DNA of 64,000 bases, from the NCBI GenBank assembly GCA_963832165.1, contig CAWHTE010000004.1:128001-192000 (forward strand). Direction: 5' to 3'. This document shows, piece after piece, positions 44,052 through 47,584 of this stretch. The position numbers were made by a program, and so were the translations under genes. The notes under the pieces are model-generated. The model did not search any database. It worked only from the letters and a program-made list of their open reading frames with translations, and was not told where the DNA came from. The DNA is from an uncultured delta proteobacterium. Its GTDB lineage: Bacteria; Myxococcota_A; UBA9160; SMWR01. Numbering within the stretch: the first letter of the stretch is position 1; every line of letters begins with the position of its first letter.

Positions 44052-44350
44052 CGCGCGCATTGTAGCCGCAGTGAAACCCGCGCGAGGTCGAGCCTTTGCG
44101 TCTATCCCCGCCAGACGGGATCAAGGTCGGCGAATACCGGTGTTTGTTTTTGGCCCCGTTCCGTTCCGGGCGCAGGATTCTTGGAAAAGTGAATGATCGC
44201 GGGCCAGTTAAGCGCAAAGTCGCGTCTTGGAATTGCGCGCGTTGCGCTATCGTGCGTGTGTGACCAGCATCGCGCCGAGCGACACCGATGGCGCCTCGCG
44301 GGGGGCGGGTCGCCAGGACGGTTCGCACGAAGCAGGTGTGGAGGGCGCTG

Positions 44351-44584
44351 ATGAAGTCGCTGATCACGGCCATTGTTCAAGCTCTTGTTGACAAGCCCAA
44401 TGAAGTCCAGATCAAGGAAGTAATTGGCGAACACGCGCATGTGCTCGAGCTGCGCGTCGCCAAGGAAGATCTGGGCAAGGTGATCGGGAAGGGGGGAGCG
44501 CACGCTTCGGCAATCCGCACGCTGATGGCAGCGGCGAGTGGCAAGGAGAAGAAGCGCTACATCCTGGAGATCATCGAGTACTGA
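44351..44584 (+). CDS. khpA: Single KH-domain RNA-binding protein (KhpA family)
   Basis: ALVDKP, LELRVAKEDLGKVIGKGG, AIRTL, LEI. Confidence 0.88.
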   Translation: MKSLITAIVQALVDKPNEVQIKEVIGEHAHVLELRVAKEDLGKVIGKGGAHASAIRTLMAAASGKEKKRYILEIIEY

Positions 44585-44787: not shown

Positions 44788-45267
44788 ATGAGCAGCCACG
44801 CCAGTGCGCAAGAGCACTTCCGCCACGGTCGCGACGATCTACGCGAGGAAGCGCTGGATCGCGCGCTCGGACATTTCCGCGCCGCGCATCGCCTCGACCC
44901 GGGCAACGCGCGCTACCGCTCCTTCTACGGTCTAGTGCTCGGACTTTGCGAGCGGCGCTGGGAGCAGGCGCTCGAGCTGTGTCGGTCCGCTGCGCGCGAG
45001 GAGTTCTTCGACCCGATCCACTACCACAACCTCGCGCGCCTCCACCTCGCATTCGGATTCAAGGCGGAGGGGCTGCGACTGCTCAAGCGCGGTCTCATGA
45101 TCGCGCCCGATCACGAGGAGAGCCTCGACGCGCTGCGCCGCCTCGGCGTGCGCCGTCGCCCGCCGCTCTCGTTCCTGCGGCGCGACAACAAGCTGAACCA
45201 GTGGCTGGGCAAGCTGCTCGACCGCGTGCGCGTGTCTCCCGAGCCCGAGCCTTCGCCGAGCGCGTAA
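44788..45267 (+). CDS. Tetratricopeptide repeat protein
   Basis: Helical repeats (AHRLDPGNARYRSFYG, YHNLARLHL...G). Confidence 0.75.
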   Translation: MSSHASAQEHFRHGRDDLREEALDRALGHFRAAHRLDPGNARYRSFYGLVLGLCERRWEQALELCRSAAREEFFDPIHYHNLARLHLAFGFKAEGLRLLKRGLMIAPDHEESLDALRRLGVRRRPPLSFLRRDNKLNQWLGKLLDRVRVSPEPEPSPSA

Positions 45268-45284: not shown

Positions 45285-45377
45285 TCAGCGCTTGCGCTTG
45301 TGGCGAGCGCGCCGGAGCAGCTTGCGCTTCTTGTGCTTGCGCATCTTCTTCCGGCGCTTCTTGATGACGCTGCCCAA
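45285..45377 (-). CDS. 30-aa basic protein, bS22 / AURKAIP1-COX24 domain family
   Basis: TTG start with GAGGG RBS; MGSVIKKRRKKMRKHKKRKLLRRARHKRKR*; too short for the ORF track. Confidence 0.88.
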   Translation of the reverse strand: MGSVIKKRRKKMRKHKKRKLLRRARHKRKR

Positions 45378-45610
45378 AGGCCGTCCCTCGATGAACCGCG
45401 CGATCGCGGCGGCGACTGGTTAGTCGCTCGTCGCTGCGAAGTCAACTGCGCGCGCACATGCGGTGCGATCTGCGCGCGCACGCGATCGCGGAAATCGCAC
45501 CGCTTCGGAAACGCCGTTTGAGCGCGTACGAGCGCAGCATTTTCGGCGCGATTCCGATTCCGGGGCCGCAATTTCAGAGCGCATCGTGTTGATTTTTTTG
45601 TGATTGTGTC

Positions 45611-45640
45611 TTGACGAAGTCGAAAAGTCGGTGTTAGCGT
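45611..45640 (+). promoter_or_regulatory. Sigma-70-type promoter
   Basis: TTGACG-N18-TAGCGT with extended -10 TG; AT-rich tract upstream. Confidence 0.65.
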
Positions 45641-45651
45641 CACCCGCAAGA

Positions 45652-45819
45652 GTTGCTCTAGGCCCGCGGTTTATGGAGAGATCGAAGGCAAATTGCCTTC
45701 AAGTAGTGTGTTGAGGGCTCCGATAGGAGGCGAACCAAAGGCTGTCAGGTCCATGCGACAGCGCGGAGATTCGTTTCCGCGTCGCAACCCAGGACGCACA
45801 GCCGTGGGCAACGAGCAAT
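45652..45819 (+). ncRNA. Multi-branched structured 5' leader or ncRNA of unknown family
   Basis: Eight mutually compatible stems, several with plus-strand G-U pairs, between the promoter and the basic peptide gene. Confidence 0.55.
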
Positions 45820-45841
45820 CCAAACAGGGGGGTGTACCCGT

Positions 45842-45928
45842 ATGGCAGCTCGCAAGAAGGCCTCGAAGAAGAAGGCTCGCAAGGCCAAGAAGGCCACTCG
45901 CAAGAAGGCCCGCCGCAAGAAGCGGTAG
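45842..45928 (+). CDS. 28-aa Lys/Arg/Ala-rich peptide (histone H1 / protamine-like composition)
   Basis: MAARKKASKKKARKAKKATRKKARRKKR*; AGGGGGG RBS; all Lys codons AAG; followed by terminator. Confidence 0.75.
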   Translation: MAARKKASKKKARKAKKATRKKARRKKR

Positions 45929-45957
45929 GTCCCATCGGCCTTCTTCGGAAGGTCCGA

Positions 45958-45999
45958 GGACCCCGGCCGGCGTACTAACGCCGGCCGGGGTTTCCTTTT
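45958..45999 (+). terminator. Rho-independent terminator
   Basis: CCCCGGCCGGCGT-ACTA-ACGCCGGCCGGGG then TTTCCTTTT; preceded by a cUUCGg hairpin at 45937-45954. Confidence 0.9.
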
Positions 46000-46043
46000 G
46001 TGGAGCCGTGCTAGCTTCCGGGCCCGCTCTCAGCCCCTCGGGT

Positions 46044-46104
46044 GCAAGTTCGCGCAGCGAGCCGAAGCCGAGCGAAGCCCATCAGGTGGGCGAGCGAAGA
46101 CGAT
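46044..46104 (+). repeat. Short palindromic repeat family, copy 2
   Basis: GCAAGTTCGCGCAGCGAGCCGAAGCCGAGCGAAGCCCATCAGGTGGGCGAGCGAAGACGAT, immediately upstream of rpoZ. Confidence 0.8.
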
Positions 46105-46115
46105 AAGGGGTCCCA

Positions 46116-46325
46116 TTGGCACGAATCACGGTCGAAGACTGCACCGAGAAGGTTCCGAATCGCTTCCATCTCGTGCAGATGGCATCGATCCGGACCAAGC
46201 AGCTCAAGAAGGGCGCGCGTGCGCTCGTCGCTTCCGAGGACAACAAGGAAGTCGTCGTCGCGCTGCGCGAGATCGCGGCGGGCTTCATCAAGCCCGACTA
46301 TCCGGAAGAAGAAGCGGAAGACTGA
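46116..46325 (+). CDS. rpoZ: RNA polymerase omega subunit
   Basis: MARITVEDC...NRFHLV...ALREIAAG. Confidence 0.95.
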
Positions 46326-46336
46326 ACGCGCAGCGT

Positions 46337-47584
46337 TCAGGCGCTGAGCGGGATCGTGAAGGCCACCGTCGTGCCGTGGCCGATGTCGCTCTGGACCGAC
46401 ACCTCGCCGCCGAGCAGCGTGATCAGGTCGCGCACGAGCGTGAGGCCGAGCCCCGCGCCGCGGTACTTCTGAGACAACGGCTCGTCGACCTGGAAGAACT
46501 CGTCGAACACGAGCCGCAGATCGTCGTGGCAGATTCCGATGCCCTCGTCCTGGATCGCCACCTGTAGCGTTCCCTCGTTCACGCGCCCGCGGATCACGAT
46601 CCGGCCCTGCGGGGTGAACTTGGCGGCGTTGTCGAGCAGCAGGAACAGGATCTGGTTCAGCTTGGTCAGGTCGGTGCGCAGGCGCGGGAACGGCTCGACC
46701 AGCTCGGTCTCGATGTGCAGCGGCTTGTCGCCGATCGAGTCCTGGATGCTGAAGATCGCCTCGTCCACGAGCTCGCGGAAGTTGACGTCCTGACACTCGA
46801 CCGGCAGCTCGCCCTGCTTGATCTTCCACAGGTCGAGGATGTTCTGGAGCGTGCGCAGGAACGCGCTGCCCTCGTCGAGCGCGCTGCGCAGCGTGGTCTT
46901 CGCGCCCTCGGAGAGCGAATCGTTCTCCCCGGTCAGCACCGCGATGATCGCCTCGATGATGCTGTTGAGCGGCGTGCGCAGCTCACGGCTCATCTTCTCG
47001 ATGAAGTCGTTCTTGAGGCGCTCGATCTTTCCGAGCTTCTCGGTACTGCGCAGTAGCTCGATGTCCTGGGCGAACAGCGCCTCGGAGAGGCGCAGCACCT
47101 CGTCGCTCTGAGCCGCGCCGTCCGGCTCGGTGGGGTCCGCCTTCGCGCTGAGCTCGGCGATGAGCCGGGCGTGATCGAAATGGATCGCGATCGTTTCGAC
47201 GATCTCCGCGACGCGGTCGATCTGCTCGGCGGTGGGCACCTCGGGCGATCCGACCACGACCGCGCCGTGCAGCTGCGATCCCGCGATCACGGGGTGCACG
47301 CGCACGCCACCCGCCGCGCGCGTGCCGAGGCCGTTCGCCTCGATCTCGCACACGCCGGTTCCGCGCATCGCCTCGAGCATGTGGGGCGCGAGCGCGACGC
47401 CCGCGGCGCGCGCCTGATCCGGCGCGGCAAATCCCGCGGCTGCGCGCAGCCGGAGGTCGTCGGGACCGCTGTCGCCGACCGCAAACACGAGCGCGACGCC
47501 ACCGCCGGTCGCGCGCGCAGCGCGCGACGCGCCAACACGCAGCGCCTGGGCCAGCGTCGGGGACGGATCTGCGGGTCCGCTCAC
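46337..47584 (-). CDS. GAF-like sensor plus histidine-kinase-like protein lacking the phospho-acceptor His
   Basis: H-box reads MSRELRTPLN; HATPase motifs DNAAKFT, DEGIGI, GAGLGL present. Confidence 0.85.
   Translation of the reverse strand: MSGPADPSPTLAQALRVGASRAARATGGGVALVFAVGDSGPDDLRLRAAAGFAAPDQARAAGVALAPHMLEAMRGTGVCEIEANGLGTRAAGGVRVHPVIAGSQLHGAVVVGSPEVPTAEQIDRVAEIVETIAIHFDHARLIAELSAKADPTEPDGAAQSDEVLRLSEALFAQDIELLRSTEKLGKIERLKNDFIEKMSRELRTPLNSIIEAIIAVLTGENDSLSEGAKTTLRSALDEGSAFLRTLQNILDLWKIKQGELPVECQDVNFRELVDEAIFSIQDSIGDKPLHIETELVEPFPRLRTDLTKLNQILFLLLDNAAKFTPQGRIVIRGRVNEGTLQVAIQDEGIGICHDDLRLVFDEFFQVDEPLSQKYRGAGLGLTLVRDLITLLGGEVSVQSDIGHGTTVAFTIPLSA

Follow-up and report, generated by a model that had tools for sequence, protein, structure and literature searches.

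A gene of only 28 codons here carries a long, branched and conserved RNA leader. The gene lies in a 64,000-nucleotide stretch of DNA from an uncultured delta proteobacterium of the Myxococcota_A (contig CAWHTE010000004.1, positions 128,001 to 192,000), which we call the window and whose numbering is used throughout. A reading made from the letters alone (below, the sequence-only reading) had proposed that a self-contained unit sits here, with a promoter, a multi-branched RNA leader, an ultra-basic peptide of 28 amino acids (aa), a hairpin with a cUUCGg loop and a strong terminator. The whole of that unit was recovered: window 45593-46001 on the plus strand is one compact single-gene transcription unit consisting of promoter, folded leader, Shine-Dalgarno sequence (SD), 28-codon open reading frame (ORF), 3' hairpin and intrinsic terminator. 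Judged from its own sequence and those of its relatives, the leader is a new RNA family, probably of the cis-acting structured leader type.

A structured leader maintained by compensatory change

The leader occupies 45647..45841 on the plus strand, a length of ~195 nucleotides (nt), and it folds well beyond chance, as the sequence-only reading had surmised. The 206-nt stretch that was folded reaches a minimum free energy of -87.4 kcal/mol, against -68.5 +/- 4.3 kcal/mol in 200 shuffles (z = -4.39; 0/200 shuffles equally stable). All eight stems named in that reading are complementary when the sequence is read, and their wobble pairs are G-U on the plus strand: 45652-58/45813-19 (P1), 45662-71/45800-09 (P2), 45684-90/45694-700 (P3), 45706-12/45793-99 (P4), 45718-21/45726-29 (P5), 45730-33/45782-85, 45741-46/45757-62 and 45763-68/45775-80. 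Every stem is thus present, but only P1 to P5, together with a hairpin at the SD, are conserved; the inner hairpins at 45730..45785, complementary in the window, vary between lineages.

P1 and P2 are closing helices that stack into a rod of ~17-20 base pairs (bp) with a 3x3 internal loop. Within them, the P3 hairpin and its linker take up 45684..45704, and the 3' strand of P3 together with the linker, UGCCUUCAAGU, is nearly invariant. P4, extended by GGG 45715-17 / CCC 45788-90, encloses both the variable hairpins and the P5 hairpin, CUCC-GAUA-GGAG (45718..45729). P5 is the most conserved motif of the leader (consensus CUCCGAUAGGGG, with CCGA invariant); its 5' strand is anti-SD-like and its 3' strand SD-like. 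The SD itself, AGGGGGG at 45826-32, has an invariant G run, is placed 7-20 nt downstream of the P1 3' strand and lies partly inside a small hairpin of its own (GGG 45830-32 / CCC 45837-39; whole element 45826..45839) that ends 2 nt 5' of the AUG. The loop of this hairpin reads G-N-R-A in 56/69 relatives and UGUA in the window. In thermodynamic ensembles the SD pairs mostly within its own 3-bp hairpin and is ~0.57 unpaired on average, and a terminator scan found no terminator-like site on the plus strand within the leader.

The minus strand folds with identical z, so that energy alone cannot assign a strand. We assigned the leader to the plus strand because many pairs are G-U in some relatives and A-U or G-C in others (UG 43 / UA 14, GU 31 / AU 28 and GU 26 / GC 20, for instance), and such alternations are mismatched on the opposite strand. 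The lower G+C content that the sequence-only reading had remarked on is also real, at 0.535-0.60 over 45500-45900 against 0.65-0.72 in the flanking genes.

An alignment of 27 leaders made with MAFFT (A1) revealed invariant or near-invariant blocks at the 5' flank and 5' strand of P1, at CCGCGG in P2, at UGCCUUCAAGU and at CUCCGAUAGGGG, as well as a further block, conserved in both sequence and spacing, that runs from the P1 3' strand through AGGGGGG to the AUG. Invariant nucleotides also occupy junctions and loops, namely UAG between P1 and P2, CAAGU after P3 and the GAUA loop of P5. Folding the raw A1 alignment with RNAalifold gave 8 pairs only, because the variable middle misaligns, and P1-P5 and the SD hairpin were therefore taken from single-sequence folds. 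These were written by hand into the structure of a covariance model, R1 (209 positions, 43 pairs), which scores 144.6 bits on the window copy.

Searched against 76 loci, R1 gave 73 matches, 54 of them distinct. In these 54 leaders, 81.7% of positions expected to pair do so, compared with 37-46% when the partners are slid, and the covariation score is 0.197 against 0.138 in shuffles (0/500). A larger set, from which same-genome duplicates and loci lacking the element were left out, comprised 73 leaders from 116 loci, all distinct. Here 80.1% of cells are paired, compared with 38-46% when partners are slid by 1-3 columns; compensatory changes occur in 32/43 pairs, compared with 20.6 +/- 2.2 in shuffles (0/500 reach 32); and the covariation score is 0.215, against 0.135 shuffled and at most 0.064 slid. 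The conserved structured RNA that the sequence-only reading had suspected is borne out by these counts. Helix by helix, the 73 leaders are 87% paired in P1 (compensatory changes in 5/7 pairs), 80% in P2 (8/10), 85% in P3 (5/7), 71-93% in P5 (3/6) and 97% in the SD hairpin (1/3). P4 is paired in only 64% because its register varies among clades, and all 10/10 of its pairs show compensatory change. In a partial check, RNAalifold, left to predict freely on the R1-aligned columns, recovered P1, P2, P3, P5 and the SD hairpin.

We also asked whether duplex energy is better when both strands come from one sequence than when the partner is drawn from a different one. Own strands pair better in P4 (-12.15 vs -8.94 kcal/mol for foreign strands) and in P1+P2 (-22.0 vs -19.7 kcal/mol). 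Two other candidate helices were rejected by the same comparison: a helix between the 5' tail (CGCAA) and the P2-P3 junction (UUGCG) scores worse with own than with foreign strands (-3.53 vs -4.04 kcal/mol), and one between the 5' strands of P1 and P2 gains no support (-7.48 vs -7.30 kcal/mol). As read from A1, long-range P1 compensates the U variants at the third P1 pair, whereas the local hairpin leaves them uncompensated. RNAalifold on the raw alignment further drew a helix between the CUCC of P5 and the G run of the SD, both sides of which are invariant, so covariation is uninformative there. A tetraloop-receptor contact was considered and dropped: the loop of the SD hairpin varies (UGA 34, UAA 16, AAA 6) while P1 is invariant, leaving no covariation signal for it. 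Mutual information with average-product correction uncovered no convincing tertiary pairs beyond the known helices.

Variation of the leader among relatives

The middle of the leader is variable and poorly alignable, and short variants (123-169 nt) do without it; a 143-nt variant dispenses with the entire variable middle. Short variants from another family of the order (123-166 nt) retain P3, P5 and the SD hairpin. In some clades, the segment after P3 pairs with the P2-P3 junction and so encloses P3, instead of or besides forming the base of P4, and this helix gains weak support from the strand comparison (own -7.37 vs foreign -6.72 kcal/mol). Across these variants, the core common to all forms is P3, the CAAGU linker, the P5-enclosing helix and the SD hairpin. 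At the other extreme, the leader of one genus is ~320 nt long (loci L101 and L102; relatives in genomes G114 and G138), the L101 and L102 leaders having ~120 nt inserted after the conserved fold, followed by a second SD-hairpin-like site ahead of the basic ORF.

The leader matches no known RNA family and differs from 6S RNA

A scan of the whole window against Rfam 15 returned no match at the gathering score, in keeping with the sequence-only reading, which could not match the fold to a riboswitch known to it. At E<=10, the region 45400-46150 yields 9 chance-level matches of at most 18 bits, none over the conserved helices; the sole weak match touching the leader's 3' end is to Atu_Ti3, on the minus strand at 45811-45877. 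ARAGORN found no tRNA or tmRNA in 45300-46200. Copies of the leader elsewhere in the genome, or mimicry of rRNA, were sought with blastn-short (including rRNA genes if assembled), giving only chance matches of 13-23 nt; the P5 and P1 motifs are unique in the genome and the P3 motif occurs three times. A literature search at title and abstract level found no published description of the RNA or the protein.

Given its size of ~190 nt and its long closing stem, the leader bears a likeness to 6S RNA, and the E. coli 6S gene shares its transcript with an ORF that lies downstream. We rejected this identity. The leader is a multi-branched junction, whereas 6S RNA is a rod with a central bubble, and relatives have separate 6S or 6S-like loci. 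The Rfam 6S model (RF00013, threshold 46.4 bits) has no match at E<=10 in 45400-46150 or anywhere in the genome, and among 31 genomes (this one and 30 relatives) it matches in two. One relative (G044) has a 6S RNA of 50.3 bits at an unrelated locus and also the basic-protein gene, whose leader shows the P5 motif; another (G048) has a near-threshold, 6S-like match of 43.4 bits at another locus alongside an R1 match of 86.7 bits. These separate loci argue that the leader is not 6S RNA.

The 6S loci of these two relatives (L089 and L090) each precede a small membrane ORF whose translation begins MNDSSR. The window's own genome has that membrane ORF (L091, 68% identity), with no 6S-like RNA before it; at L091 1290-1375 (contig C5), just upstream of the ORF's promoter-like TTGACA, we observed a near-exact tandem duplication of ~45 nt.

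The product is the minimal form of a basic repeat protein

The leader is followed by an ORF at 45842-45928 on the plus strand, ending in the stop codon TAG (45926-28), called from its reading frame and its conservation. Its 28-aa polycationic peptide contains 12 K and 6 R, that is, 18/28 residues (64% K+R), exactly as the sequence-only reading had it. When 45600-46000 was compared by BLAST with 61 related genomes, 55 of them gave a match, and in relatives the coding part matches repeatedly, in tandem. An ORF starting MAAR/K or MAVR and encoding 28-129 aa of RKKAT-like repeats was present in 27 of 30 loci that were read, the remaining three being interrupted by contig ends. The complete ORFs after R1's AUG (n=64) encode 28-155 aa in units of ~5 residues, roughly (RKKAT)n; this set includes two spurious short ORFs at weak matches, where the real ORF lies ~120 nt downstream, and one doubtful 16-aa ORF at a weak match, and repeat collapse in short-read metagenome-assembled genomes (MAGs) could distort the lengths.

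Both ends of the protein are conserved, with MAAR(R)KKA at the N end and ...RKKARRKK(A/R) at the C end, and repeat number alone varies. Fixed ends with a variable repeat count indicate that the window peptide is a repeat protein in its minimal form. The ORF is a genuine, conserved gene, since start context, SD, frame and both ends are kept while the repeat number changes; of the micropeptide described in the sequence-only reading, the gene has therefore stood, while its length turns out to be only that of the smallest member of a family of 28-155 aa. The short form in the window is supported by a contig from an RNA library, belonging to a close relative, that spans 45841-45972 with 6 differences and no gaps.

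No Pfam family matches the 28-aa peptide or two homologs of 110-111 aa at E<=1. The NCBIfam model for Burkholderia-type H1-like proteins (NF038053) scores 14.7 and 17.8 bits on the homologs, against a cut-off of 80, and leaves the 28-aa peptide unmatched. A word-indexed protein search returned compositional relatives only: Hc2-type proteins (PF07382), SWIB proteins and HU proteins with K-rich tails. By analogy with these, the protein probably works like an H1- or Hc2-type polycationic tail while standing outside those families, and its sequence marks it as what we would call a new family of H1/Hc2-like microproteins.

Promoter, start site and terminator

The promoter (45593..45640, plus strand) looks strong and was recognized by reading the sequence and by its conservation across relatives. 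It comprises a UP-element-like T tract at 45593-99, a -35 element TTGACG at 45611-16, an 18-nt spacer and a -10 element TAGCGT at 45635-40, these last being the TTGACG-N18-TAGCGT of the sequence-only reading; an extended -10 TG stands at 45632-33, the spacer ending in TGT. A strict sigma-70 consensus scan calls no promoter here, and TAGCGT agrees with the consensus at 3/6 positions, so the call relies on the conservation of the elements in relatives. Among the 72 relatives with sufficient upstream sequence, TTGAC is present in 72/72, TTGACN-N18-TAnnnT in 63/72 with a spacer of invariably 18 nt, TGn ahead of the -10 in 54/72 and a T run of at least 6 in 70/72. Transcription probably starts near 45646-48. 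An invariant GCAA directly 3' of the -10 is well explained as start-site context, which would put the 5' end of the RNA ~4 nt before P1.

Downstream of the ORF, both the cUUCGg hairpin and the strong terminator of the sequence-only reading were found. The 3' untranslated region (UTR) forms the hairpin GGCCUUC-UUCG-GAAGGUC at about 45937..45954, which is kept in relatives with compensatory variants as judged by eye. The intrinsic terminator (45958..46001 including the U-rich tail), identified by terminator scan and conservation, has a stem-loop at 45958-45993 of 16 pairs, 12 of them G-C, followed by the tail CCTTTTGTGG, and its stem sequence is almost invariant across relatives.

The strand pair GCCUUC / GAAGGC recurs in the unit, in P3 (45684-45700), in the 3'-UTR hairpin (45937-45954) and in the ORF (45842-45928), where GAAGGC, read as Lys-Lys-Ala codons, occurs four times. 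The 5' end of the leader resembles the Thr-Arg-Lys coding repeat, and in one locus (L115) the 5' end of R1 aligned weakly to coding repeats. The UTR hairpins may derive from inverted repeat copies, or may pair with the coding repeat.

Some evidence for transcription comes from Logan contigs of four soil or rhizosphere RNA libraries, which cover parts of the leader and ORF at 45635-45785 (2 differences), 45836-45909 (0 differences), 45683-45870 (from relatives) and 45841-45972. These contigs weakly support transcription, as DNA carry-over is possible and transcript ends cannot be derived from contigs. They leave 45374-45632 and 45966-46039 uncovered, gaps that are not evidence of transcript ends.

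The unit is a conserved feature of one order

The unit sits in a conserved neighborhood, the members of which were named from Pfam and NCBIfam. A KhpA-type KH gene (44288-44584) and a TPR gene (44788-45267) are followed by the gene for bS22, the basic-peptide unit and rpoZ (46116-46325), after which comes a histidine kinase gene on the minus strand (46337-47584), and this order is kept across related loci. The bS22 gene is a 30-aa ORF on the minus strand (45285-45377) that scores 41.4 bits with NCBIfam NF047430 (cut-off 34) and matches Pfam COX24_C at E = 1.8e-6. It is divergent from the basic-peptide unit in the window and on the same strand in some relatives, having flipped between genera.

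R1 occurs as one copy per genome, one genome having a second weak match beside the first. In a sample of the class, R1 was found in 87/119 genomes of the window's order and in 0/32 of the class's other order, the filters of this genome scan being stricter, so that weak matches may be lost. In a sample of the phylum it was found in 17/151 genomes, all 17 among the 24 genomes sampled from the same order. Every R1 match checked with downstream sequence precedes an ORF starting MAAR/K or MAVR; for two weak matches, the basic ORF is ~120 nt further downstream. When 185,579 species genomes were scanned with a strict pattern, 46 loci came back, all in MAGs. The titles of 36/46 name Myxococcota, Myxococcales, Myxococcaceae or Deltaproteobacteria; the other 10 are labelled Spirochaetales (6), Opitutales (1), Gammaproteobacteria (1), Desulfobacterales (1) and 'uncultured bacterium' (1). 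Several of these 10 share R1 score and length with loci of genomes that GTDB assigns to this order, and the submitters' labels of the 10 MAGs look unreliable.

The gene itself reaches beyond R1. In 4/4 genomes of the same class in which R1, strictly filtered as in the genome scans, had given no match, bS22 and rpoZ flank a MAARKK... ORF of 29-139 aa. Their leaders are diverged, with a TTGAC promoter in 3/4, the CCGAUA motif in two and CAAGU in one, and R1 run without filters gives 19 bits for one of the four. In one genome from another family of the phylum, no such ORF was found upstream of rpoZ. The unit is conserved in one order of uncultured Myxococcota and diverged in the sister order of the same class.

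What the leader may do

As the leader contains no terminator, any control it exerts would be at the level of translation or mRNA stability, and action in cis on one or both of these is the likeliest role in view of its anatomy and context. Anatomy and context are also what would speak for the cis-regulatory RNA or RNA-peptide pair of the sequence-only reading, and for its possibly autoregulated nucleoid-condensing or RNA-chaperone micropeptide. More specifically, we tentatively favor, at somewhat less than an even chance, that the leader is a cis-acting operator of its own gene through which the basic protein feeds back on its synthesis. Feedback is favored because structured RNAs attached to single genes for nucleic-acid binders are typically autoregulatory, and because an unbuffered polycation is plausibly harmful; this leader is a structured 5' UTR tied exclusively to one gene, whose product is a predicted nucleic-acid binder. 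The product would bind nucleic acid by charge, like the tail of histone H1 or chlamydial Hc2, and an excess of it in free form would harm the cell. Free protein beyond its normal DNA or RNA targets would then bind and compact the conserved P3-P5 core, the SD hairpin or both, and the compacted leader would block the 30S subunit from the SD, giving translational feedback as in the leaders of ribosomal-protein genes. The P1-P2 rod, ~4 nt from the inferred 5' end, would probably at the same time shield from 5'-end-dependent decay an mRNA that we take to be highly transcribed and purine-rich.

A more elaborate form of this proposal, which we regard as rather improbable, is that leader and product are a co-evolved RNA-peptide 'charge-stat'. 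An mRNA domain would here read the level of free polycation through its own protamine-like peptide and then set synthesis, the P5 hairpin or the GNRA-type SD hairpin perhaps serving as docking site; the recurring GCCUUC / GAAGGC strands would let the coding region, when untranslated, re-pair with the leader.

Several observations weigh against feedback by the product. A low-complexity peptide is not expected to recognize a specific RNA fold. In the predicted ensembles the conserved fold does not sequester the SD, so that no off-state is visible in silico, and neither the duplex comparison nor RNAalifold revealed an alternative SD-blocking helix with comparative support. A small-molecule aptamer would account just as well for the conserved nucleotides of loops and junctions. 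Nor do all forms share the closing helices, as the predicted folds of the short variants prefer a local 5' hairpin over long-range P1/P2, and the alignment on which pairs were counted was fitted to R1 and is hence biased toward pairing.

Alternatively, the leader could be a ligand riboswitch, in which P3-P4-P5 would form the aptamer and a ligand would alter access to the SD, the ligand being a small molecule or ion tied to polyanion/polycation balance or to growth state, such as Mg2+, polyamines or a nucleotide alarmone. Nucleotides in junctions and loops (UAG, CAAGU, GAUA) are invariant while the helices covary, and the length, the multi-helix junction typical of aptamers and the absence of an Rfam match all fit. 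Metabolite riboswitches, however, usually control several linked genes, and this element has a single locus per genome, before one gene family that offers no metabolic clue to a ligand; an alternative SD-sequestering helix lacks covariation support and the leader lacks a terminator. We therefore hold a riboswitch to be clearly unlikely. A thermometer or cold-shock leader tuning an RNA-chaperoning basic peptide could likewise explain a long structured 5' UTR and a weak SD hairpin before the gene of a small nucleic-acid-binding protein, but known thermometers melt an SD-blocking helix and only 3 bp touch the SD here, while the main helices are rich in G+C and, at -87 kcal/mol, stable, and no feature is specific to temperature. 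This is the least probable of the explanations we weighed, and barely credible.

The leader might instead sense nothing, and act as a constitutive stabilizer or processing element of its mRNA or as an RNase III site, with the P1-P2 rod and the 3' hairpin protecting a message that would be unstructured, rich in purines and heavily translated. P1 begins ~4 nt after the inferred start and, with P2, makes a rod of ~17-20 bp; hairpins are conserved in both UTRs; and the SD is largely accessible in the predicted ensembles, all of which suits passive protection. Such a role is unlikely, though it deserves to be taken seriously: a simple stabilizer would have no need of sequence-invariant loops and a five-helix architecture kept across an order, and short variants that lack the long-range rod still keep P3 and P5. 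If the rod were a processing stem, as it resembles, the strongly conserved leader could even be excised as a stable small RNA or as the ribonucleoprotein partner of the peptide, making this a dual-function gene. The Rfam 6S model finds nothing in the window's own genome or, with it, in 29/31 genomes searched, and the unit adjoins rpoZ. Yet the leader is never found apart from the ORF, it is branched and not a 6S-type rod, and G044 and G048 have 6S or 6S-like RNAs at another locus besides this gene, leaving an excised RNA very unlikely.

Significance and comparison with known systems

These results add a well-supported structured RNA family, absent from Rfam, in a lineage without cultured members, and link it to an unusual gene, for a protein of 28-155 aa made up almost entirely of positive charge. 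Were the leader indeed to sense its product, it would show how a bacterium restrains a potentially toxic protamine- or H1-like polycation and would offer a compact RNA-peptide model for specific recognition by low-complexity basic peptides. Should the charge-stat prove true, it would represent a new class of autoregulation, acting on a disordered protein of variable repeat length that coats the nucleoid or RNA. On the plainest reading, what the unit reveals is a microprotein, probably abundant, that would coat nucleoid or RNA and that goes unnamed in standard family annotation.

Feedback by the product would place the leader beside the autoregulatory leaders of the L20, S15 and rne 5'-UTR classes. 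Like them, it is a structured 5' UTR tied to one gene for a basic nucleic-acid binder, it adjoins the SD and lacks a terminator, and its neighbors here belong to translation and transcription (bS22, rpoZ). Unlike them, it has no match in sequence or structure to any Rfam leader, and its product is a low-complexity repeat of variable length and not a folded ribosomal protein.

The product, in turn, resembles Hc2 (HctB; PF07382) and the H1-like proteins (NF038053; Pseudomonas AlgP) in being built of Lys/Arg/Ala-rich units of ~5 residues, whose number differs widely among strains or species. Hc2 is reported to range from 165 to 237 aa through the number of its lysine-rich pentamers (PMC2848022). 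The protein described here fails the profile cut-offs of those families, is smaller (28 aa in the window) and has conserved N and C ends of its own, and its gene carries a dedicated structured leader. For chlamydial Hc1, control comes in trans, from the small RNA IhtA, and it is not known to be controlled by a cis leader.

Arginine-rich peptides that bind RNA hairpins, such as phage lambda N with boxB and HIV Tat with TAR, offer a last parallel, in that a short, highly basic peptide is here combined with a small hairpin whose loop is GNRA-type in 56/69 relatives. The pairing differs in that the window loop is UGUA and the peptide is lysine-rich and repetitive. By analogy with these pairs, the SD hairpin could be the docking site of the peptide.

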